From the NCBI GenBank assembly GCA_963664115.2, contig CAXWPJ010000005.1, positions 32,001 through 96,000 of the forward strand: 64,000 nt of DNA, in the 5' to 3' direction. A program made the translations under genes and the position numbers. How positions within the stretch are numbered: the stretch's first letter is position 1; every line of letters begins with the position of its first letter. Of the stretch, positions 5,649-51,028 are shown in pieces. The notes under the pieces were generated by a model that did no database searches, was not told the DNA's origin, and was given only the letters and a program-made list of their open reading frames with translations. This DNA is from Terriglobia bacterium. Lineage in GTDB: Bacteria; Acidobacteriota; Terriglobia; 20CM-2-55-15.

Positions 5649-7651
5649 GTAGGGTCGAGCACTGGTGCGGTAACCCGTAGGCCACTCCTTGGCTGTATCC
5701 GGCGTTTCCGCCTTCGTGCCCGTTTAGGAGTGGCCGTAGCTCCGTTTCCAGCGCCCGCCACTTCGCACGCAGCGTGCGGATTTCCCGCACTACGCGCTCC
5801 TGCACACTTCGCCTCAAGGGTTATGAGACCTGTCGAGTGAAAGCGACTATGCAGAATGGCAGGAATAGGACACACGGTAGGCATTGAACAACCCCACCGT
5901 CCCATACAGCCAAGCTGCACTCCACCGCTTCCATCCGAAACCGCGACGCTGACTGGCTCGGGCCCGGTGGGACCGGATCTTCTTTTCAACCCAGGCGCGA
6001 ATGAACTGGAAGCATCCGCTGGAGTGACCAAACGCAAAGTAACGCACCCACCCGCGCAGGATCGGATTGATCTGCTCGATCACCCGATGGAGCGGCTGGG
6101 ACTGCGTACGCTTGAATATCTGATTGAGTCGACGGAGCAACGCGGTCCGCTTTGCTAACTTCGGCGTCCGCAATGCCATCCATCGTCCCCGGCGACTACG
6201 AACGCGCCGGAACTCAAAGCCGAGAAATCCAAAGCTCTCTCCCCGCGTCAGGTCCACCCGTCGGCTCTTCTCCGCATTCACTTCCACCTGAATCTTCGCC
6301 AACTCTTCCCGAAGTCGCTTCTCGACAACCTGCCGAAGCCACTGATACCGCGGATGCGCATCCACCAGGACCACCATGTCATCGGCATACCTGGCGTACT
6401 CGATACACTCCCGCTGCCGGTTCCGGGTAACTTGCTTAGCCCGCTCTAACATCCGATCGACATCATTGAGATAGATGTTACTGAGCAGCGGCGAAATCAC
6501 CCCACCTTGCGGCACACCCTGCTTCCCTGACGCCTTCAGCATCCATTTCAGGAGTCCAAGCACCTCCGGATCGCGGACTCTCTCGGCGACTTTCGCTAAA
6601 ACGATGGGGTGTTTCACCGTGTCGAAGTAGCGTCGCAGATCGAGATCGATCACGTCGGTCTTACCCTCAACGATGGCTCTGGAAACGCGCCCGATGGCAG
6701 CGTGTGCGGTCTTCTTCGGTCGATAGCCGAAGGATCCGGGTTGAAAGTCTGCTTCAAAGATTGGTTCCAGGATCAGCTTCAATGCACCCTGAACCACCCG
6801 GTCCCGGATCGATGGGATCGAAAGCATCCGTTGCTTGCCCCCCTCCTTGGGTATCCCCACCTTCCGGAGCCGTCCGGGTCGATATCTACGTTCGATCAGC
6901 TCCTCTCGAAGCTGGTCGAGAAACCCTTCCACGCCTGCGGCCTCAACGGCGTCAAACGTTACCCCATCGATTCCCGGGGCACCGTCGTTGGCCTTTGCCA
7001 ACCGGTACGCTTCCTGAAGCGTTTCTCGCTTTACCACGTGGATATACAACCCCCAAAAGCGCCAGGCCGGTTCGGCCTTCGCCTTGACGTATAGTCGTCG
7101 CCTCAGGTCTTGCAGACTAATGGGCGCATTTGTCATTTCACCCCTGCCTCCCGTCTTGGTTTCGACCTCATGTACAGCAGGGCCCCTTGGCTCCACGGGC
7201 GTTACTCCGCTTCATCGCTACTACGGACCCGGCCGCCACCGTCTCGTCTGCTCCCGACTTTCCGGTTGTGCCGGTTATACGATCGCTCCTGCTCCACCGA
7301 TTTCTCGATGGGACGAGGACGGTTTCTCCAGTTGCTCGGCATGTCCTTGTCACCGTGCTGCCCCTAATCACCCCGCCGGAGTGACAAGCCGCTTCGGTCA
7401 GATTGCGACATATCATGCTGCCTTCGCCCGTCCCAAGAAGGCTCGGCCTCCGGATCTACTCATTTCGAGGCCACCTCTAGGTTCACTTGCGTTGCGGCCC
7501 GGTGACTCACTCACCATCCTTTCTGATGGCTTTGTCGATCGGCTTCATCCGCTTCGTTTCCTCCACGGATGCGACCCAAGTTACAGAGTCTCTGACTCTT
7601 ACTCTGGTGGGGCTCTATCCCACTGAACATGCCAGCCTTAGCTGGACGCAC
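5649..7651 (-). mobile_element. Group II intron
   Basis: 5' end GTGCG at 7651, 3' end ...CGACCCTAC at 5649, domain V GAGCGCGTAGTGCGGGAAATCCGCACGCTGCGTGCG near 5765-5800, encodes an RT. Confidence 0.93.
5847..7136 (-). CDS. ltrA: Group II intron reverse transcriptase/maturase, no endonuclease domain
   Basis: APGIDG, PSIRDRVVQ, GVPQGGVISPLLSNIYL, YADD, NPILRGW maturase motif. Confidence 0.93.
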   Translation of the reverse strand: MTNAPISLQDLRRRLYVKAKAEPAWRFWGLYIHVVKRETLQEAYRLAKANDGAPGIDGVTFDAVEAAGVEGFLDQLREELIERRYRPGRLRKVGIPKEGGKQRMLSIPSIRDRVVQGALKLILEPIFEADFQPGSFGYRPKKTAHAAIGRVSRAIVEGKTDVIDLDLRRYFDTVKHPIVLAKVAERVRDPEVLGLLKWMLKASGKQGVPQGGVISPLLSNIYLNDVDRMLERAKQVTRNRQRECIEYARYADDMVVLVDAHPRYQWLRQVVEKRLREELAKIQVEVNAEKSRRVDLTRGESFGFLGFEFRRVRSRRGRWMALRTPKLAKRTALLRRLNQIFKRTQSQPLHRVIEQINPILRGWVRYFAFGHSSGCFQFIRAWVEKKIRSHRARASQRRGFGWKRWSAAWLYGTVGLFNAYRVSYSCHSA

Positions 7652-7777
7652 TCAGGACTTGAGAATGGATTTCAGGGCACCGGCACCCGTTCCTTCAGTT
7701 CTTCAAACCAGTTAAGGACGATGTTGATTTGGGGAGAGGCCGCTAAGTCCGTTTGGCCTTCAGGTAACGCCACTAGA

Positions 7778-11361: not shown

Positions 11362-12300
11362 GAGTTATAACCGAATCTGGTGTTTGAGGGATTGAATAAG
11401 AGCGGCGTATCTGGTTGATTTGTTGTGACAAAACTTCAAAGCAACCATAGGAGATACGCCACTGTGAGCAAGAGTAACGTGAATGGACCGGAAGGTCGAG
11501 AAACGATTGAGGATCCAGTAACAGAACTACTACGAGTTGGGGCACAGCAACTGATCCAACGCGCAGTGGAAGCCGAATTGGCAGAGCTGCTATCCCAGCA
11601 CGGTGGCCGGCGAACTGAGACAGGAAACGCCGGGGTGGTACGCAACGGTTATCTGCCGGAACGCGAACTGCAGACGGGATTGGGTCCGGTAACAGTCCAA
11701 ATCCCGAAGGTCCGTGCCAAGACGGGCGAAGCTGTGACGTTCCGATCGGCCCTGGTACCACCGTACATTCGGAAGACGAAGTCGCTGGAAGCAGCGGTGC
11801 CGTGGTTGTATTTGAAAGGCGTTTCCAGCGGCGAGATGGGTGAGGCCCTAAAAGTTCTTGTCGGTCCCCAGGCGCAGGGTCTGTCGGCGAGCACGGTATC
11901 GCGGTTGAAACAGGTTTGGGGCGAACAGTACCGCCTCGGACGAGGAGCGTTTGGATGCAGATCGCTGGGTCATGTCTGGGCCGACGGCATCTACAGCGGA
12001 CTTCGGGCGGAACAAACCAAGTTGTGTGCATTGGTCGTGATCGGCATGAACGCGGAGAGAAGCGTTTCCGCCGAAGACGGTGTACGGGTCGACACTGGCG
12101 CGAGGTCTGAAGCGAAGTCCCATGTTCCGAAGTTGGCCACGATCAACGAAATCTATCCCGATCCAACCGAAGTCTGAACGATGCCTGTCGGTCCAGGCGA
12201 AGGCGAAACAGGCCCTGCACTCGATCTGGCAGGCCGAGACGAAGGCAGTTGGACAACCTCAATAACGGGCTGACACGGGCACGACTGATGTTCAAACTCC
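11362..12300 (+). mobile_element. IS256-family element, degraded or chimeric copy
   Basis: Identical to 49644 onward for about 580 bp, then progressive deletions; right boundary approximate. Confidence 0.8.
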
Positions 12301-15743: not shown

Positions 15744-15993
15744 CTACACCGTAACAAAGTTGGACGGAAGTGAGCCTCGAAAATCTTCGCAAATTCAACT
15801 ACAGGCATGATTGATAAGCAAGAAAGTTGTCAACTCGCTTTTCTTGGGTGATTCTCAACGTCCGAGAAGATGATTTATTGATGGTATGGACTCCTCTTTG
15901 ATGACTGAGTCGGCATCGAAGTGCCAAAGTCATTTTGAGCCTCGCAATAAAGCGGGCGAAACACGTGTACGTGTGAACAAAAAGGAGTCCGAG

Positions 15994-17028
15994 ATGAAGA
16001 ATAGAACGATAGCAGTGGATCTGGCAAAGAATGTTTTTCAAATTGGTGTTTCAGATCGCCCCGGGCATGTAGAGAAAACCTATCGTTTAAGTCGGGCAAA
16101 GTTTCTGGGGTTCTTTGCGAACCAGGAGCTGGCGACCGTGGTGATGGAAGCCTGCGGATCCGCCCATTACTGGGGTCGGAAGATCCGGGAACTGGGACAC
16201 ACGGTCGTTCTGATCTCGCCGCAGTATGTGACGCCCTACGTCAGGCGCAACAAGACCGACCGTACGGATGTGAAAGGATTGTTGGAAGCCTATCGTGACA
16301 GCGATATTCATCCAGTGCCGGTCAAAACCCTGGCCCAACAGCAACTGACCTCATTGCATCGAATCCGTTCGGCGTGGATGCGAACCCGAACCGCACGGAT
16401 CAATACGGTGCGGGGGTTGTTACGGGAGTTTGGCTACGTGATCCCGACCGGAGCGGATCATCTGGTGCCGGGGGTAATGGAGCTGATCGAAGATGCAGAT
16501 GTCGTCATCCCCAGTGTCGTTCGGGAGATGTTTCACCAGGTGTGTGGCGAGATCCGTGAATTGGAATCTCGCATGCGATCGGTGGAACAAGAGTTGAAGA
16601 CGCTGGCTCGGCAGATGCCTGAGGTCGCGCGTCTGACGTCGATTCCCGGCATCGGCCTGTTAACGGCAACGGCAATGGTGGGGTTTGTTGGAAACATCAA
16701 ACGATTCCGAACGTCCCGCCATTTTGCCAGTTATCTGGGACTCACACCCCGGGAACATTCCAGTGGCAACCAGCGACGCATGGGCCGGATCAGTAAGCAA
16801 GGCGATCGTTACCTCCGGATGCTGTTGGTTCATGGGGGCCGTTCCCTGTTGTGGAGTGCCCATCGAGAGGGCGCCACACCGACACCTCTCCAGCAATGGG
16901 GTCTCCAGAAACACGAGTTCCGCGGACACAACAAGGCAATCGTTGCACTGGCCAACAAGTTGGCGCGTCGCGTGTGGGCGGTTTGGAACCGTGACTGTGA
17001 CCATCAGGCCCGGTATCAGGCGGCCTGA
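15994..17028 (+). CDS. IS110/IS1111 DEDD recombinase
   Basis: IAVDLAKNVFQ, MEACG, NKTDRTD, SIPGIG, GLTPREHSSG, VALANKLAR. Confidence 0.93.
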   Translation: MKNRTIAVDLAKNVFQIGVSDRPGHVEKTYRLSRAKFLGFFANQELATVVMEACGSAHYWGRKIRELGHTVVLISPQYVTPYVRRNKTDRTDVKGLLEAYRDSDIHPVPVKTLAQQQLTSLHRIRSAWMRTRTARINTVRGLLREFGYVIPTGADHLVPGVMELIEDADVVIPSVVREMFHQVCGEIRELESRMRSVEQELKTLARQMPEVARLTSIPGIGLLTATAMVGFVGNIKRFRTSRHFASYLGLTPREHSSGNQRRMGRISKQGDRYLRMLLVHGGRSLLWSAHREGATPTPLQQWGLQKHEFRGHNKAIVALANKLARRVWAVWNRDCDHQARYQAA

Positions 17029-17039
17029 CCCGAAACAGT

Positions 17040-17300
17040 CGGAATATCTTTTCAGCGAGCTGCGATGAGGTTCGAGATGATGGCGTACCGGTCAGACCGG
17101 CGCGGGGCAACGCCGACAAGTCCTTTGGCCCTTAGAGGCCGTTATTTTATCGGTTGGCTCCCCGCGCGCAAATTTCCATCATGGCCTGGAACAATACAGT
17201 TCCACTTTTGAGGCCGAAGATACGGGTGCAGTCGACTAGCTACTCACCTCGTAACTTCTAGTCAGTCCTGCTGAATGCATTTTGCCGAAGAAAGCTGACG
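17040..17300 (+). ncRNA. Putative bridge/seek RNA of the IS1111 element
   Basis: Two GGCC-closed internal loops; one holds CAAGTCCT and TTTATCG (target matches), the other CCATCAT and AGATA (IS end matches); boundaries approximate. Confidence 0.7.
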
Positions 17301-17355
17301 GGAGAGCTGCGCCTACTTGACAGAGGAGTCCAGATACAGGACTTGACCTCGAAAA

Positions 17356-19701: not shown

Positions 19702-19859
19702 TGCTCAACCTCCAATGGGAGAACCCTTATGTACTTGAATATTGGCGCGATTATCAGAGGACCGATAATCAAAGTCAAGCGTATGGGCGAATGTGAAGAC
19801 TTTTGGCAACAAAGCAGGTGTGGGTATGTGACGATTCCAACGCTTGAGCAAGGGGGCTG

Positions 19860-19983
19860 GCAGGGTCTTGATCGCCACTTTACGCCCGAGCTTCGTGTCA
19901 CGAGCACGCCACACTTCTCCCATACCACCTTTGCCGAGGAGTGTGCCGATCTCGTAGTGGCCCAGTTTGGTGCCAGATTCCAT
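19860..19983 (-). pseudogene. Kinase 5'-end stub
   Basis: [42 protein letters not shown], then unrelated sequence. Confidence 0.88.
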
Positions 19984-20010
19984 CGTTATAGTGTGTCGCT
20001 GAAATACAGT

Positions 20011-20097
20011 GAAAAACTCTGCAAAGGATACTAAGGCAGGAAGTTAGGCGCTATTAAATTCTCAAGTCCTGAGAAACGACATTCTCGGACCTTGAGA
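20011..20097 (-). repeat. Left 87-bp inverted repeat including 38-bp site copy 4 (20060-20097)
   Basis: 86/87 identical to the reverse complement of 21232-21318; site TCTCAAGTCCTGAGAAACGACATTCTCGGACCTTGAGA. Confidence 0.95.
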
Positions 20098-20188
20098 CTT
20101 TGATTGGCAGCTCGACACAGCACGGCCGTATATAAGGCTCTCTAACTCTCTTAAGAATGTGTGGCTTCGCCTATTTTCCGGTGAATGG

Positions 20189-21139
20189 CTATGCGCCTTC
20201 CAGACCCAACCGATCATTTACTGCATGACGCAGTTTCTGTTTGCAGCCCAGGTAGCGTTCCGTCGTCAACACTGAGGAATGACCCAGCAGGAACTGAATC
20301 TGCTCAATCTCGCCCCCGGCCTGGTAGCACAACCGAGCGCAGGTCCGACGCAGATCGTGTGGGGCAAGTTGGCTGATCTCCGATCGCTTTGCAACTTGCT
20401 TGATAATTCGCCAGACGACTTTTCCAGACAGACCGTCACCCCAGACACCTCCATAACGGTTCACTCTGCGAAAAATTCTTCCAGCACTAATTCCGGCCGA
20501 CCGTGTCCAGTTGTCCAATGCAGCTTTGACCCAGTCCGGCATTGGCACGGTTCTAACGCGTCGACCTTTGCCGATAAGATCCGCAATGATCCAGTGGTCT
20601 TCCCGGACCTGCAAATTCTCGACTCGCAGATCTACCAACTCAGATCGTCTTAAACCACATCCGAGGAGTACGGCAACGATCGCGCGATCTCGAAGGCCCC
20701 GGAGGTCGTCAGACTTGAAGCCAGTTAATAAGGTCCGCCCTTGCTCGGCCGTGAGCCAGTTGCCTATGATTCGTCCCTTTGATTTTGCTCCCTTGACATG
20801 CTGGATTCCCGCTGCCAACTCGGGACTCAGGAGTCCGCAATCCGAAGCCTCATGCGCCAAACGGCGAACAGCAGCCAGGTGCACATTGATGGTCGAAGCG
20901 GCGAGGTTTCTTTCCTTCAGATAGGTTTTGTATCGTCGAACAACAGTCCGGTTGAAAGCAAGGCGGGGCTCTGAACAATACCATCGTATGAATTCGTCAA
21001 TTGCTCGTCGATATGATCTTTGTGAACTTTCTGACGCCAGTGAAGCCAAGACCGCGGCCCTGGATTGTTCAAGGTCTGGCAGCTTGAGGGTCGTCTTCAT
21101 CCGTGACTTTTTCCGCTTCTTATCCGTTTCTCTTTTCAT
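20189..21139 (-). CDS. Tyrosine recombinase/integrase
   Basis: SAM-like N-terminus (WYCSEPRLAFNRTVV); catalytic GLRRSE, K in GKG, HDLRR, LGH, TERY. Confidence 0.93.
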   Translation of the reverse strand: MKRETDKKRKKSRMKTTLKLPDLEQSRAAVLASLASESSQRSYRRAIDEFIRWYCSEPRLAFNRTVVRRYKTYLKERNLAASTINVHLAAVRRLAHEASDCGLLSPELAAGIQHVKGAKSKGRIIGNWLTAEQGRTLLTGFKSDDLRGLRDRAIVAVLLGCGLRRSELVDLRVENLQVREDHWIIADLIGKGRRVRTVPMPDWVKAALDNWTRSAGISAGRIFRRVNRYGGVWGDGLSGKVVWRIIKQVAKRSEISQLAPHDLRRTCARLCYQAGGEIEQIQFLLGHSSVLTTERYLGCKQKLRHAVNDRLGLEGA

Positions 21140-21231
21140 AGTCGTGCCTCCATTTCAAATTGAACAAGGGAGGCAGATTTTCTGGAAAACAAGGCAAAAC
21201 ACTGAAATAGAGGGCTTGTCACGCCGGCGAT

Positions 21232-21318
21232 TCTCAAGGTCCGAGAATGTCGTTTCTCAGGACTTGAGAATTTAATAGCGCCTAAGTTCCTGCCTTAGTA
21301 TCCTTTGCAGAGTTTTTC
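21232..21318 (+). repeat. Right 87-bp inverted repeat including 38-bp site copy 5 (21232-21269)
   Basis: Site is the exact reverse complement of 20060-20097. Confidence 0.95.
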
Positions 21319-21346
21319 GCAGCTTTTTCAGCGACACACTTTAAAC

Positions 21347-21556
21347 ATGGAATCTGGCACCAAACTCGGTCATTACGAGATCTCAACGCTTTTAGGTAAG
21401 GGTGGAATGGGTGAAGTGTGGCGTGCTCGTGATACCAAGCTCGGGCGCGAAGTTGCGATCAAGACTCTTCCTGCAGAGTTTGCGAAGGATTCAGATCGAC
21501 TCGCCCGGTTTGAACGTGAAGCCAAGCTGCGGATCAGCGGTATAAGCAGTGTCTGA
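21347..21556 (+). pseudogene. Kinase 5'-end stub
   Basis: [61 protein letters not shown], then stop. Confidence 0.88.
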
Positions 21557-26302: not shown

Positions 26303-26340
26303 TCCCAAGTCCCGATAAATCATCTTCTCGGACGTTGAGA
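26303..26340. repeat. 38-bp site copy 6
   Basis: TCCCAAGTCCCGATAAATCATCTTCTCGGACGTTGAGA. Confidence 0.9.
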
Positions 26341-26981: not shown

Positions 26982-27019
26982 GGTCAAGTCCTGATAAATC
27001 ATCTTCGCGGAAGTTGAGA
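26982..27019. repeat. 38-bp site copy 7
   Basis: GGTCAAGTCCTGATAAATCATCTTCGCGGAAGTTGAGA. Confidence 0.9.
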
Positions 27020-27578: not shown

Positions 27579-27684
27579 AGCAGGTCGTTCGTCCCCGCCT
27601 GTAGCCCGTCAGAGCATTTCGCACAGAATCCGCTGAAAAACTAAGAGACACTTTTCTAATCAGAACGATCTGAAGGAGGATCGA

Positions 27685-28050
27685 ATGAGTGAGAAAGTGT
27701 CGGCAGAGAATCGGGTACGGGAAATTCGTCGGAAGACGAGGAAGAAGTACTCGTCGGAAGAGAAAGTGCGGATTGTGTTGGAAGGACTGCGAGGGGAAGA
27801 GAGCATCGCAGCGCTGTGCCGACGCGAAGGGATTCCATCGAATTTGTATTACCGGTGGAGCAAGGACTTCCTGGAGGCAGGCAAGAAGAGACTGGCTGGG
27901 GACACGAAGCGGGAAGCCACGTCGAGCGAAGTCACTGAGTTGCGGCAGGAAAACGATCAGTTGAAGCAGGTCGTGGCCGAAATACTGCTAAAGAATCGTT
28001 TTCTGAAAAAAACGTTGAACGTAACGGACTCCGAGAGCATCGATATATGA
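27685..28050 (+). CDS. IS3 OrfA (HTH)
   Basis: EKVRIVLEGLRGEESIAALCRREGI. Confidence 0.88.
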   Translation: MSEKVSAENRVREIRRKTRKKYSSEEKVRIVLEGLRGEESIAALCRREGIPSNLYYRWSKDFLEAGKKRLAGDTKREATSSEVTELRQENDQLKQVVAEILLKNRFLKKTLNVTDSESIDI

Positions 28051-29030
28051 GGCAATCGGGATCTGAGAAGCTGGAGACGATCCGAGTGGTGGAAGACTCG
28101 GAGTTGTCGGTGACAGCGACCCTCCGGGAGCTGGGCGTCCCCCGCAGCACGTTCTACGGTTGGTATCGACGATACAAAGAGCGTGGCGCAGCCGGCTTGT
28201 TAGATCGGCATTCCGGCCCCGGCTTCTGCTGGAACCGGATTCCGGGACCGGTGCGGGAACAGGTGGTCGAAACCGCGTTGAACCACCCGGAAGCCTCACC
28301 GCGGGAACTGGCCTGGCAGATCACCGACACCCAGGACTACTTCATCTCCGAATCCAGCGTGTATCGGATTCTGAAGAGATGCGACCTGATCACCAGTCCC
28401 GCATACATCGTGATGACGGCCAGCGATCACTTCCAGCAGCCAACCCGGCGTGTGAACGAACTCTGGCAAACTGATTTCACTTACTTCAGGGTCGTCGGTT
28501 GGGGTTGGTACTACCTGTCGACCGTGCTGGACGATTACTCTCGCTACATCATCGCCTGGAAGCTCTTTCAAACCATGGCCGCATCTGACGTTCAGGACAC
28601 GCTGGACGTTGCACTACAGGCGACAGATGTCGGACAAGTACAAGTCCGGCACCGACCGCGATTGTTGAGCGACAACGGCCCCTGCTACGTATCGCACGAA
28701 CTCAAAGACTATTTACAACGTCGTGGTATGGAACACACCCGGGGTGCGCCCTATCACCCGATGACACAGGGCAAGATCGAACGCTATCACCGTTCGATGA
28801 AGAACGTGGTCAAGTTGGAACACTACTATTATCCGTGGGAACTTGAGCAGGCGATCGCGCAATGGGTCGAACACTACAACCACCATCGGTATCACGAATC
28901 TCTGAACAACGTGACACCGGCTGACGTGTTCTTCGGGAGGGATCAGCAGATCCTTGCACGTCGTGACCAGATCAAAAGAAAAACGCTGGCTCGACGCAAA
29001 ATCGAGAACCTTAGGATTGGAGTGGTATAA
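28047..29030 (+). CDS. IS3 OrfB (DDE/rve)
   Basis: WQTDFTY, SDNGPCY, QGKIERYHRSMK. Confidence 0.9.
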   Translation: MRQSGSEKLETIRVVEDSELSVTATLRELGVPRSTFYGWYRRYKERGAAGLLDRHSGPGFCWNRIPGPVREQVVETALNHPEASPRELAWQITDTQDYFISESSVYRILKRCDLITSPAYIVMTASDHFQQPTRRVNELWQTDFTYFRVVGWGWYYLSTVLDDYSRYIIAWKLFQTMAASDVQDTLDVALQATDVGQVQVRHRPRLLSDNGPCYVSHELKDYLQRRGMEHTRGAPYHPMTQGKIERYHRSMKNVVKLEHYYYPWELEQAIAQWVEHYNHHRYHESLNNVTPADVFFGRDQQILARRDQIKRKTLARRKIENLRIGVV

Positions 29031-29089
29031 CTTCAAAACCGTCTCTTAGCTAAATGGTCTTTTTGTCCGAATTATTCTGACGACGTACA

Positions 29090-30397
29090 GTTCAGAGATT
29101 CGTGATACCGATGGTGGTTGTAGTGTTCGACCCATTGCGCGATCGCCTGCTCAAGTTCCCACGGATAATAGTAGTGTTCCAACTTGACCACGTTCTTCAT
29201 CGAACGGTGATAGCGTTCGATCTTGCCCTGTGTCATCGGGTGATAGGGCGCACCCCGGGTGTGTTCCATACCACGACGTTGTAAATAGTCTTTGAGTTCG
29301 TGCGATACGTAGCAGGGGCCGTTGTCGCTCAACAATCGCGGTCGGTGCCGGACTTGTACTTGTCCGACATCTGTCGCCTGTAGTGCAACGTCCAGCGTGT
29401 CCTGAACGTCAGATGCGGCCATGGTTTGAAAGAGCTTCCAGGCGATGATGTAGCGAGAGTAATCGTCCAGCACGGTCGACAGGTAGTACCAACCCCAACC
29501 GACGACCCTGAAGTAAGTGAAATCAGTTTGCCAGAGTTCGTTCACACGCCGGGTTGGCTGCTGGAAGTGATCGCTGGCCGTCATCACGATGTATGCGGGA
29601 CTGGTGATCAGGTCGCATCTCTTCAGAATCCGATACACGCTGGATTCGGAGATGAAGTAGTCCTGGGTGTCGGTGATCTGCCAGGCCAGTTCCCGCGGTG
29701 AGGCTTCCGGGTGGTTCAACGCGGTTTCGACCACCTGTTCCCGCACCGGTCCCGGAATCCGGTTCCAGCAGAAGCCGGGGCCGGAATGCCGATCTAACAA
29801 GCCGGCTGCGCCACGCTCTTTGTATCGTCGATACCAACCGTAGAACGTGCTGCGGGGGACGCCCAGCTCCCGGAGGGTCGCTGTCACCGACAACTCCGAG
29901 TCTTCCACCACTCGGATCGTCTCCAGCTTCTCAGATCCCGATTGCCTCATATATCGATGCTCTCGGAGTCCGTTACGTTCAACGTTTTTTTCAGAAAACG
30001 ATTCTTTAGCAGTATTTCGGCCACGACCTGCTTCAACTGATCGTTTTCCTGCCGCAACTCAGTGACTTCGCTCGACGTGGCTTCCCGCTTCGTGTCCCCA
30101 GCCAGTCTCTTCTTGCCTGCCTCCAGGAAGTCCTTGCTCCACCGGTAATACAAATTCGATGGAATCCCTTCGCGTCGGCACAGCGCTGCGATGCTCTCTT
30201 CACCTCGCAGTCCTTCCAACACAATCCGCACTTTCTCTTCCGACGAGTACTTCTTCCTCGTCTTCCGACGAATCTCCCGTACCCGATTCTCTGCCGACAC
30301 TTTCTCACTCATTCGATCCTCCTTCAGATCGTTCTGATTAGAAAAGTGTCTCTTAGTTTTTCAGCGGATTCTGTGCGAAATGCTCTGACGGGCTACA
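29090..30397 (-). mobile_element. IS3-family element, copy 2, inverted and 3'-truncated (orfA 29947-30312, orfB to 29090)
   Basis: Reverse complement of 27600-28907 with a few SNPs; lacks its own right end. Confidence 0.9.
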
Positions 30398-42182: not shown

Positions 42183-43672
42183 TGTACGTCGTCAGAATAA
42201 TTCGGACAAAAAGACCATTTAGCTAAGAGACGGTTTTGAAGTTATACCACTCCAATCCTAAGGTTCTCGATTTTGCGTCGAGCCAGCGTTTTTCTTTTGA
42301 TCTGGTCACGACGTGCAAGGATCTGCTGATCCCTCCCGAAGAACACGTCAGCCGGTGTCACGTTGTTCAGAGATTCGTGATACCGATGGTGGTTGTAGTG
42401 TTCGACCCATTGCGCGATCGCCTGCTCAAGTTCCCACGGATAATAGTAGTGTTCCAACTTGACCACGTTCTTCATCGAACGGTGATAGCGTTCGATCTTG
42501 CCCTGTGTCATCGGGTGATAGGGCGCACCCCGGGTGTGTTCCATACCACGACGTTGTAAATAGTCTTTGAGTTCGTGCGATACGTAGCAGGGGCCGTTGT
42601 CGCTCAACAATCGCGGTCGGTGCCGGACTTGTACTTGTCCGACATCTGTCGCCTGTAGTGCAACGTCCAGCGTGTCCTGAACGTCAGATGCGGCCATGGT
42701 TTGAAAGAGCTTCCAGGCGATGATGTAGCGAGAGTAATCGTCCAGCACGGTCGACAGGTAGTACCAACCCCAACCGACGACCCTGAAGTAAGTGAAATCA
42801 GTTTGCCAGAGTTCGTTCACACGCCGGGTTGGCTGCTGGAAGTGATCGCTGGCCGTCATCACGATGTATGCGGGACTGGTGATCAGGTCGCATCTCTTCA
42901 GAATCCGATACACGCTGGATTCGGAGATGAAGTAGTCCTGGGTGTCGGTGATCTGCCAGGCCAGTTCCCGCGGTGAGGCTTCCGGGTGGTTCAACGCGGT
43001 TTCGACCACCTGTTCCCGCACCGGTCCCGGAATCCGGTTCCAGCAGAAGCCGGGGCCGGAATGCCGATCTAACAAGCCGGCTGCGCCACGCTCTTTGTAT
43101 CGTCGATACCAACCGTAGAACGTGCTGCGGGGGACGCCCAGCTCCCGGAGGGTCGCTGTCACCGACAACTCCGAGTCTTCCACCACTCGGATCGTCTCCA
43201 GCTTCTCAGATCCCGATTGCCTCATATATCGATGCTCTCGGAGTCCGTTACGTTCAACGTTTTTTTCAGAAAACGATTCTTTAGCAGTATTTCGGCCACG
43301 ACCTGCTTCAACTGATCGTTTTCCTGCCGCAACTCGGTGACTTCGCTCGATGTCGCTTCCCGCTTCGTGTCCCCAGCCAGCCGTTTCTTCCCCGCCTCCA
43401 GGAAGTCCTTGCTCCACCGGTAATACAGATTTGACGGAATCCCTTCGCGTCGGCACAGTTCTGCGATGCTCTCTTCGCCTCGCAACCCTTCCAACACGAT
43501 CCGCACTTTCTCCTCAGACGAGTACTTCTTGCGCGTCTTTCGACGAATCTCTCGTACCCGATTCTCTGCCGACACTTTCTCACTCATTCGATCCTCCTTC
43601 AGATCGTTCTGATTAGAAAAGTGTCTCTTAGTTTTTTAGGGTATTTCGTACGAAATGCTCTGACGGGCTACA
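42183..43672 (-). mobile_element. IS3-family element, copy 3 (orfA 43222-43587, orfB 42242-43225)
   Basis: Same termini as copy 1; orfB appears identical while orfA has more substitutions. Confidence 0.9.
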
Positions 43673-43984
43673 GGCGTATTCGGCCTGCGTTCCGATTTCG
43701 ACGAGATCCACGAGAGCGGAGGGGAAACCGCCCATATCAGCCATATAACCAAAACGGGTCACATTTTCCTGTCCGGTACGAACAGTCGAGGGTTCGCCGA
43801 TCAATGCTTGTTTCACACGCGTGATCTGTTCTTTGGCGAGCTTCGACCGGTTCTCTTCCATCGTCATCGGGACAGCAAAGCCGAAGCTGAAGGCGAGAAC
43901 TGCGATGACAGCCAGTGAAAGAGCCACCTCCAGCAAACTTACACCGCGCTCACCCGTCCATGCTCGATGAGTGTCCTGCTTCAT
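43673..43984 (-). pseudogene. Minor pilin truncated by IS3
   Basis: RGVSLLEVAL, FGYMADMGG as in neighbouring paralogues; runs into the IS end. Confidence 0.8.
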
Positions 43985-49643: not shown

Positions 49644-51028
49644 GAGTTATAACCGAATCTGGTGTTTGAGGGATTGAATAAGAGCGGCGTATCTGGTTGA
49701 TTTGTTGTGACAAAACTTCAAAGCAACCATAGGAGATACGCCACTGTGAGCAAGAGTAACGTGAATGGACCGGAAGGTCGAGAAACGATTGAGGATCCAG
49801 TAACAGAACTACTACGAGTTGGGGCACAGCAACTGATCCAACGCGCAGTGGAAGCCGAATTGGCAGAGCTGCTATCCCAGCACGGTGGCCGGCGAACTGA
49901 GACAGGAAACGCCGGGGTGGTACGCAACGGTTATCTGCCGGAACGCGAACTGCAGACGGGATTGGGTCCGGTAACAGTCCAAATCCCGAAGGTCCGTGCC
50001 AAGACGGGCGAAGCTGTGACGTTCCGATCGGCCCTGGTACCACCGTACATTCGGAAGACGAAGTCGCTGGAAGCAGCGGTGCCGTGGTTGTATTTGAAAG
50101 GCGTTTCCAGCGGCGAGATGGGTGAGGCCCTAAAAGTTCTTGTCGGTCCCCAGGCGCAGGGTCTGTCGGCGAGCACGGTATCGCGGTTGAAACAGGTTTG
50201 GGGCGAACAGTACCGCCTCGGATGCGAGGAGCGTTTGGATGCAGATCGCTGGGTCTATGTCTGGGCCGACGGCATCTACAGCGGACTTCGGGCGGAACAA
50301 ACCAAGTTGTGTGCATTGGTCGTGATCGGCGTGAATGAACGCGGAGAGAAGCGTTTCCTGGCGATCGAAGACGGTGTACGGGAATCGACACAGAGTTGGC
50401 GCGAGGTCTTGTTGAAGCTGAAGTCCCGTGGGATGAATGTTCCGAAGTTGGCCATCGGTGACGGTGCGATGGGGTTCTGGGCCGCACTGGAGGAAATCTA
50501 TCCCGAGACACGTCAACAACGTTGCTGGATGCACAAAGTCATGAACGTCCTCAACTGCCTGCCCAAGTCGGTCCAGGCGAAGGCGAAACAGGCCCTGCAC
50601 TCGATCTGGCAGGCCGAGACGAAGGCAGACGCCGAGAAGGCATTCGACTTGTTCATTGAAACCTATGAACCGAAGTATCCGAAAGCCACACTCTGCCTGC
50701 AGAAAGACAGAGAGGAACTGCTGGCCTTTTACGACTTTCCGGCCAAGCACTGGCAGAGCATCAGAACGACGAATCCCATTGAGTCGACCTTTGCCACCAT
50801 TCGACACCGAACGAAGCGATCCAGAGGTTGCCTGACACGGGATGGCATGCTGCACATGATGTTCAAACTGGGCCAGTGCGCTGAGAACAATTGGCGACGA
50901 TTACGAGGATTCGATGATCTGAGCAAGGTAATCATCGGAGTGAAATTCAACGATGGTGTCGAAGCGACACAAGTCGATCAGGCCGCCGCTTGAATCAATC
51001 TCCTAAACACCACTTTTGACAATAACTC
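49644..51028 (+). mobile_element. IS256-family element (complete)
   Basis: IR GAGTTAT.../...ATAACTC; 9-bp TSD ATCGTCGGC at 49635-49643 and 51029-51037. Confidence 0.95.
49707..50993 (+). CDS. IS256 transposase
   Basis: RNGY, WADGIY, GDGAMG, QRCWMHK, RTTNPIES. Confidence 0.93.
   Translation: MTKLQSNHRRYATVSKSNVNGPEGRETIEDPVTELLRVGAQQLIQRAVEAELAELLSQHGGRRTETGNAGVVRNGYLPERELQTGLGPVTVQIPKVRAKTGEAVTFRSALVPPYIRKTKSLEAAVPWLYLKGVSSGEMGEALKVLVGPQAQGLSASTVSRLKQVWGEQYRLGCEERLDADRWVYVWADGIYSGLRAEQTKLCALVVIGVNERGEKRFLAIEDGVRESTQSWREVLLKLKSRGMNVPKLAIGDGAMGFWAALEEIYPETRQQRCWMHKVMNVLNCLPKSVQAKAKQALHSIWQAETKADAEKAFDLFIETYEPKYPKATLCLQKDREELLAFYDFPAKHWQSIRTTNPIESTFATIRHRTKRSRGCLTRDGMLHMMFKLGQCAENNWRRLRGFDDLSKVIIGVKFNDGVEATQVDQAAA

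Follow-up and report, generated by a model that had tools for sequence, protein, structure and literature searches.

An intact IS1111-family element lies in a split 38-bp site

The window (the whole stretch of 64,000 nucleotides analysed here) carries at positions 15879-17336 a complete and intact insertion sequence (IS) of the IS1111 family, which interrupts one copy of a repeated 38-bp site (Table 1). The transposase shows the residues D9, E52, D89 and D92 together with GL-P----SG at 249-258, and reached 317 bits against the NCBIfam model NF033542 (IS110 RNA-guided transposase; cut-off 140); the 380-aa form given by the ORF finder begins at an upstream ATG within the inverted repeat. The subterminal inverted repeats are 12 bp long with 11/12 matching, have the same end positions in nine left and 12 right ends, and carry extensions as in the 7+3 bp rule for IS1111 stated in the accessible part of PMC11187229. 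In the predicted RNA the top-strand match (17117-17124) stands 5' of the bottom-strand match (17146-17152), which is the IS1111 order. The following hallmarks are thus present: DEDD domains, a length of 344 aa, 7+3 ends, a downstream non-coding region (NCR), and a fixed site and orientation without target duplication, and since every one that could be tested was found, we assign the element to the IS1111 family. The IS1202 family was ruled out, as a DDE transposase, a 5-bp duplication and insertion outside the XerC arm are all absent here.

Table 1. Features of the IS, its predicted RNA, the 38-bp site and further mobile elements. Plain numbers are window positions; G000 is the host genome.
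Feature	Position	Strand	Basis or remark
Split 38-bp site, left part	15851..15878	+	left arm, 6-bp centre GATGAT (15869-15874), first 4 bp of right arm
IS left end	15879..15897	+	7-bp extension and subterminal inverted repeat 15886-15897
DEDD transposase/recombinase, 344 aa	15994..17028	+	Pfam PF01548, PF02371; NCBIfam NF033542
3' NCR, 308 bp	17029..17336	+	predicted seek/bridge RNA source; conserved part about 17078-17236
TGATGG, copy of the IS's own first six bases	17078..17083	+	predicted pairing with 5' donor guide
Target-binding stem-loop with internal loop	17100..17167	+	consensus fold, covariation
First guide, complementary to right-flank top strand (+2 to +9)	17117..17124	+	covariation
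Second guide, matches junction -5 to +2 (would pair with bottom strand)	17146..17152	+	covariation and allele tracking
5' donor guide, complementary to IS left extension	17174..17182	+	stem-paired in predicted fold
3' donor guide AGATA (IS's last five bases) plus four letters fitting target +1 to +4	17218..17226	+	
IS right end	17317..17336	+	TTGACA, inverted repeat 17322-17333, 3-bp extension
Split 38-bp site, right part	17337..17346	+	
Intact site, centre TGTCGT	20062..20095	-	flanks tyrosine recombinase gene
Intact site, centre TGTCGT	21234..21267	+	inverted partner of 20062..20095
Intact site	26305..26338	-	exact match to junction guide
Intact site	26984..27017	-	
Group II intron in another site copy	5650..7651	-	single-copy; one base from IS insertion position
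Second DEDD IS, copies	G000 C2:754151, C9:940141, C10:417769, C11:1513, C11:29384, C12:168035, C12:342416; L167		
293-aa integrase elements	G000 C1:92965, C1:107675, C2:196490, C12:35350, C12:158198, C12:487026		

TTGACA at the right end is a perfect -35 hexamer and the candidate -35 of a circle-junction promoter, whose predicted -10 is poor (3/6, read from sequence); a promoter scan gave nothing relevant. At gathering scores, Rfam reported only tRNA and a group II intron domain and had no model for the RNA of the IS. Contigs of the RNA runs X16-X19 (two studies) cover parts of the element, including an exact 199-nt piece (17038-17236, depth 2.5) and also pieces of the transposase; they come without strand or level and possibly derive from DNA, so we did not count them as expression. 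No end-to-end circle joint was seen among the joints listed for contigs of DNA runs X1, X2, X5 and X14, and joints that skip the IS may derive from other site copies and hence do not demonstrate excision. Some contigs skip the guide region (17118 to 17301 in X17 and X19; 17115 to 17316 in X1 and X2), possibly as non-autonomous derivatives or relatives. Two sequencing runs from one study that hold most of the window carry a sponge metagenome label.

The element occurs at one base and in one orientation of the site

The clean split of a site copy that the first-pass annotation had described was confirmed: the element stands after ...GATTTAT and before CAGGACTTG, with no duplication. Copies were sought in the host genome (G000) by a 22-nt search with the IS ends, which returned nine left and 12 right ends, and 8/9 of the left and 11/12 of the right ends adjoin the 38-bp site. 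Seven of the nine left ends directly follow the site's ...TTTAT and ten of the 12 right ends directly precede C[A/G]GGACTTG, in each case at the same base. The mirror position in the left arm holds one left end (C1) and one right end (C10, from a 74% identical sibling), and one left end (C3) and one right end (C7) lie outside the site. The other copies, which the annotation had proposed to map, are therefore almost all at the same base of the site and not in unrelated sequences. Moreover, intact sites differ from one another in the second base before the junction, 39 of 168 having the AT allele, whereas the occupied right-arm sites were AT in 7/7 cases (Fisher p 6e-5), as the guide described below predicts.

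Several individual copies deviate from this picture. The copy at C3:7811 has the site as its right flank and, as its left flank, unrelated coding sequence ending in a partial guide match, which is possibly the product of a half-match event or of an adjacent deletion. The remnant at C12:18693 is bordered by the site on its right although its loop is a different one. In the copies at C10:423967/422120 and C5:206591, the NCR is interrupted by another element at an identical position.

Two guide segments of the NCR covary with the flanks of the element

Both target matches claimed for the NCR are exact: CAAGTCCT at 17117-17124 is the reverse complement of the right flank, and TTTATCGG at 17146-17153 has letters identical to the junction in the site copy at 26305-26338 (minus strand). 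Among 1000 dinucleotide shuffles of the NCR, an 8-nt target complement arose in 32, a 6-nt same-sense match in 581 and both in 17. On their own the guide/target matches are thus modest, and the strong evidence is comparative.

The transposase was matched in 23 of 41 genomes searched, G000 included, and 51 loci with the better matches were examined. From 19 aligned RNA variants we obtained 13 first-guide classes with a right flank and 10 second-guide classes with a left flank; 10 unassignable loci were left out, and the best of two registers was taken in data and shuffles alike. The first guide agreed with the right flank at 6.76 of 9 positions compared with 4.02 after shuffling (13 classes), and the second guide with the left flank at 3.96 of 5 compared with 2.22 (10 classes), values reached in 0 of 100,000 shuffles each; after removal of six site-targeting variants, most of those present, the counts were 0 and 16 of 100,000 for the first and second guide, respectively. 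As the guide classes are kin, these shuffle counts overstate significance and are not probabilities, although the trend itself is clear. Flanks that misfit their guide were found at L082 (right, 5/9), L091 (2/9), L108 (3/9, apparently shifted by one base) and L088 (left, 2/5).

The correspondence extends to variants of the site itself. Elements with a TTTCT junction guide (L105, L122) occupy TTTCT sites, one with TTTAA (L083) occupies a TTTAA site, and a 75% identical relative with a re-written first guide is found in the site's left arm at 11 loci of the congeneric genome G002. Relatives with 51-78% identity have other guides and unrelated targets that mostly fit them (for example L085, L110, L137, L088, L090), and this holds even for relatives at 75-78% protein identity; L137, L141 and L145, with other guides, are inserted elsewhere although G002 is site-rich. 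Across the sequences compared, the target guides thus covary with the flanks of related elements, down to single-base alleles of the site. The annotation had called the IS a specialist parasite of the site, which is apt for this guide variant and not for its lineage, since related elements with other guides hit unrelated sequences and the lineage is evidently retargetable. In a tree of 23 transposases, the right-arm variants form two well-supported clades and two left-arm rows stand apart, all within an open polytomy, so that the tree is compatible with a single as well as with repeated, independent acquisition of this target.

The predicted RNA has a target loop and a likely donor loop

The outer GCCGAC/GTTGGC and inner GGCC stems of the annotation were recovered both in the single-sequence fold and in the 19-variant consensus. 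The folding energy of the NCR was uninformative, being no better than that of shuffles (z -1.09). In the consensus fold both target guides are unpaired and form variable columns between conserved stems, the first base of CAAGTCCT and the last base of TTTATCGG lying at the edge of the outer stem, and five pairs show two-sided changes compared with 0/500 shuffles. In the window sequence alone the target guides are predicted to be partly self-paired (unpaired probability 0.71 and 0.39). Exposure in loops, which the annotation had named as decisive, therefore applies to the target guides in the consensus fold and not to CCATCAT, which is stem-paired. Its partner in both the MFE and the consensus fold is TGATGG (17078-17083), and it is paired in every predicted fold of the longer RNA; its mean unpaired probability is 0.17-0.27 in three longer constructs and 0.44 in the isolated second domain, and the CCATCA/TGATGG helix has a compensatory change at one pair in 6/19 variants.

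A second loop with CCATCAT (17176-17182) and AGATA (17218-17222) had also been proposed. Both segments are exactly where they were placed, with the reservation that CCATCAT is paired and not looped. The AGATA segment had been read as a match to the circle junction; together with the next letters it fits the right IS/target junction better, the four letters after AGATA in the window copy being three exact and one G-T wobble relative to the target. Statistics for the donor loop come from distant IS1111 elements only (38-49% identity; 80 loci, 29 with a downstream RNA match, 24 usable), and left ends and cores within the close clade were compared by eye. In 24/24 distant elements the 3' donor guide is identical to the terminal five bases, which occur in three versions (shuffled 10.6). 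The two letters that follow agree with the target at +1+2 in 23/24 cases (shuffled 11.0) and with the donor at +1+2 in 4/24, and the 5' donor guide matches left-end base +7, which lies beyond the internal stem, in 17/24 (shuffled 9.3). The two letters past the core follow the target weakly (22 vs 16.5; 2.4% of shuffles), and the four-letter handshake count in 12 close classes is likewise weak (1.32 vs 0.99; 1.8% of shuffles). In the consensus fold the 3' donor guide is unpaired. Given the 24/24, 23/24 and 17/24 matches, we regard the donor loop as likely real, with two possible partners for its 5' guide.

Taken together, we favour, with a probability of roughly 0.9, the reading that an intact IS1111 element inserts at one base and in one orientation of a site present in about 170 copies, likely by means of a two-loop guide RNA whose first loop reads both strands. 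The anatomy of the element, its fixed insertion point, and the complementarity and covariation of guides and flanks are direct observations.

Two other accounts of targeting have to be weighed against this one. If the short hairpin at 17100-17167 were the functional RNA, the IS ends being read by the protein through the inverted repeats and the second domain being structural, then the pairing of CCATCA inside the RNA, with its compensatory change in 6/19 variants, would be expected, and the accessible part of PMC11187229 describes an 82-nt RNA that alone supported ISEc11 transposition. The CCATCA letters themselves lean the same way, matching the RNA 5' segment at 132/138 positions and the left end at 102/138 in 23 distant elements, neither above shuffles. 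We nevertheless regard this account as unlikely, for the 3' donor guide tracks three right-end sequences in 24/24 distant elements, left-end base +7, which the internal stem does not include, is tracked by the 5' guide in 17/24, and target and donor loops have one common layout around a GGCC stem. Far less probable still is that targeting rests mainly on protein or DNA structure (a hairpin, for instance, or recombinase bound to the site), the model put forward for IS1202 at dif sites, the RNA matches being incidental or echoing the inverted repeat. Guides and flanks vary together against nearly constant inverted repeats, relatives with other guides are found elsewhere even in site-rich genomes (L137, L141, L145, G002), and the occupied allele follows the guide; these observations outweigh the weakness of single guide matches and the GGACT contained in both the IS inverted repeat and the site. 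Also in favour of protein or structure, 20 of 21 further element ends in G000, of at least two types and, judging from their end sequence, presumably IS30-like, adjoin site halves at the centre.

The 38-bp site is abundant and probably a cassette boundary

The abundance and conservation of the site, which the annotation had anticipated, are evident: G000 has 168 intact copies at <=4 mismatches compared with none for a reversed control pattern, and all four other genus genomes searched carry it (11, 90, 46 and 2 matches, the last three in G002, G003 and G004). Forty relatives were searched in all, and two further family genomes had one match each; elsewhere the pattern was present in no viral contig and in 11 short metagenome contigs. 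The copies are clustered and consist of two inverted arms around a fixed 6-bp centre, GATGAT in 128/168. Among 127 neighbour pairs at <=15 kb, those with the same centre are direct in 74/80 and those with different centres inverted in 38/47. Flanks are shuffled, similar left flanks joining different right flanks (four sites, for example, with four right sides), and in a cross-genome test the G002 clusters proved to be a mosaic of pieces from scattered G000 loci. Clean excisable cassettes were not found among 192 G002/G000 alignments of >=500 bp, 13 of which had one end at the site in both genomes and none both ends. A conserved stretch of about 50 bp follows 70/168 sites (in the window at 7674, 14214 and 17358 on the plus strand and about 27530 on the minus strand); its 25-bp core has 139 genome matches and may be an accessory sequence or a cassette end.

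The site was rejected as the chromosomal dif, for which a separate and probably single sequence at C2:108120 (L166) is the putative candidate; it lies at the GC-skew sign change and has matches in 18/24 other family genomes. The left arm of the site agrees with the XerC-side arm of dif at a mean of 6.9/11 positions and the right arm with the XerD-side arm at 5.1/11, the XerD-side arm not being conserved. In genome G010 there are two variants of dif, with a left arm similar to that of the repeated site.

We lean, by a narrow preference, towards a tyrosine-recombinase cassette boundary that is read by the host Xer proteins. XerC and XerD of the host both score above their NCBIfam cut-offs, and of the 12 recombinase loci in G003 only three, namely XerD (85%), XerC (79%) and a further integrase (70%), have a close counterpart among the G000 proteins. 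Service by a dedicated recombinase, such as the product of window gene 20189-21139, is a less probable option. The two inverted site copies that flank this gene speak for it, as do the palindrome of about 18 bp per arm, longer than the 11-bp Xer arm, and a right arm unlike dif; yet the gene has no match at E<=1e-30 in the site-bearing G002, G003 and G004, its homologues occur in G009, G019, G024 and G030, genomes without a site match, no site was present in the fetched flanks of nine homologue loci, and XerD and XerC are among the few G003 recombinases close to those of G000. Somewhat more doubtful is an attC- or REP-like single-stranded hairpin in place of a double-stranded dif-like site. Pairing between the arms is possible, with two staggered bulges whose positions vary, and attC is known to be parasitised by group II introns. 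G000 also encodes an integrase (C9:714590-715759) whose C-terminus we take from its motif to be IntI-like, although the gene has no site within 3 kb and was the best match of 0/12 G003 recombinase loci. IS1111 elements on attC are known from PMC11187229, in its accessible part. The arms, however, do not covary (66 complementary vs 69.2 shuffled), which argues against a hairpin, and neither the fixed 6-bp centre nor the orientation rule for same-centre and different-centre neighbours is in keeping with it.

Further elements at the site and in the window

Seven copies of a second DEDD IS (354 aa, 24% identical) occupy the centre of the site and have a 3-bp sequence at either side. This IS is associated with the GACAA arm allele in 6/7 (p 0.002) and the TTA allele in 6/6 cases (p 0.0004), and the occupied alleles match loop segments of its own NCR. 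In addition to the group II intron of the window, two further 5' ends, which we assume to be intron-like, adjoin the left arm of the site (C12:17050, C12:564505). Six identical 293-aa integrase elements begin about 20 bp from intact or decayed sites, and two relatives (C12:569262, C3:2990) begin directly inside site centres.

Within the window, positions 19856-21474 comprise the tyrosine recombinase gene and the two inverted sites that enclose it; behind each site comes a similar promoter-like stretch and kinase 5' end. With its 149-bp inverted repeat (83%), the region looks like an invertible module. An exact 183-bp tandem duplication lies at 1289-1654, elements with an rve-type transposase are repeated (27596-30397, 42183-43676), two of them lying back to back, and a transposase of the Mutator type occurs twice (11362-12248, 49644-50628), one copy inside a PD40/kinase gene region.

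A model for insertion

By analogy with IS621 and ISEc11, the IS would be copied out as a circle, and the guide RNA and DEDD recombinase would pair the circle junction with the site. The strand bound by the two 3' guides, here the bottom strand, would on the same analogy be cut exactly at the observed junction and exchanged. For IS621, the accessible part of PMC13626964 describes a cut beside the core in the strand bound by the 3' guides, which is the first to be exchanged; the incoming core then pairs with the donor guide. Mapped onto our element, such a bottom-strand-first exchange would explain why the core letters of the donor loop follow the target: the letters after AGATA match the target rather than the circle, so that their pairing would have to await exchange and would favour insertion. 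A core dinucleotide common to donor and target was considered and rejected, as left ends in this clade begin with TG and 26 distinct right flanks start with CG (18), CA (6) or GG (2), so that donor TG and target CA/CG have none in common; the 24 distant elements have the first base common to donor and target. Without a common core, we infer that one exchanged strand would fix the product. Swapped core letters were absent from the junctions of the G000 end search and of the 51 examined loci, which fits fixation of one transferred strand, and single-strand transfer is reported for two IS110 elements in two bioRxiv abstracts. Insertion splits the right arm 4 bp from the centre and would inactivate the site.

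A broader picture, which we offer as a speculative possibility, is an undescribed Xer-type cassette platform of about 170 sites with a guild of parasites, in which the RNA of one IS1111 lineage would be aimed at both arms and at single-base alleles of the site, possibly several times independently, a second DEDD lineage would take the centre, no common core would be needed, and the copy of the IS's own left end would sequester the donor guide as a switch.

Comparison with known systems

The comparisons below refer to what the accessible parts of the cited sources describe. Among the IS1111 elements with seekRNA (ISEc11, ISKpn4, ISPst6, ISPa11 and ISPa25; Siddiquee et al. 2024, PMC11187229) we find the same DEDD transposase of 330-350 aa, 7+3 bp subterminal repeats, downstream NCR and lack of duplication, the same order of top-strand before bottom-strand match, and natural re-programming (ISEc11/ISXne4, PMC11187229). 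The element described here differs from them in its new target, in at least 13 natural guide classes on related scaffolds and in the tracking of single-base alleles. With the IS1111-attC group (ISKpn4, ISPst6, ISPa25; PMC11187229) it has in common that an RNA-guided IS sits in a boundary site of gene cassettes; its target, however, is not attC, being a 38-bp, dif-like site with a fixed 6-bp centre and no arm covariation. The IS621 bridge RNA (PMC11208160, PMC13626964) likewise has two loops of parallel layout and a junction at the expected first cut. Its 3' donor guide continues into letters that become paired to the incoming strand once exchange has taken place (PMC13626964), as would those of the element described here. 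Unlike in IS621, the RNA is here downstream, donor and target have no common core dinucleotide, and in the predicted fold a copy of the IS's own left end keeps the 5' donor guide in a stem.

The dif-site hunters IS1202 and ISAjo2 (PMC10132070, bioRxiv 2022.12.17.520857) also seek Xer-type cassette sites; they have a DDE transposase and a 5-bp duplication, insert 5 bp outside the XerC arm and, as far as these sources go, have no described guide RNA, whereas the IS of the window inserts inside an arm and splits the site. The site itself recalls the Acinetobacter pdif/dif modules and chromosomal dif-module islands (PMC12907356), in which clustered 11-6-11 sites distinct from the main dif bound small gene modules. 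It is unlike Acinetobacter pdif, on the available account, in its 168 copies, in neighbours that are mostly direct and not inverted, in an XerD-side arm that is not conserved and in belonging to another phylum.

IS1111 on attC and IS1202 on dif sites were already known, and the class of target found here appears to be new; in the main texts of open-access PMC and bioRxiv papers we found no report of an RNA-guided IS on a dif-like cassette site. The IS likely parasitises an undescribed gene-cassette exchange site by RNA-guided insertion, which would add a dif-like cassette site to attC, REP and transposon ends as targets of RNA-guided IS1111 elements and make the IS a marker of an abundant cassette system. 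The mechanism class is established, and what our analysis adds in testable form are the target class, the allele-level guide series, the missing common core and the self-mimic stem. Because the IS ends and the donor loop vary in concert, and the core letters of this loop go with the target, the element bears on the question of seekRNA versus bridge RNA. Should a common core prove dispensable, this would ease a known constraint on bridge editors, and the natural panel of guides and targets on recombinases that are 75-100% identical makes the rules of IS1111 re-programming directly testable.
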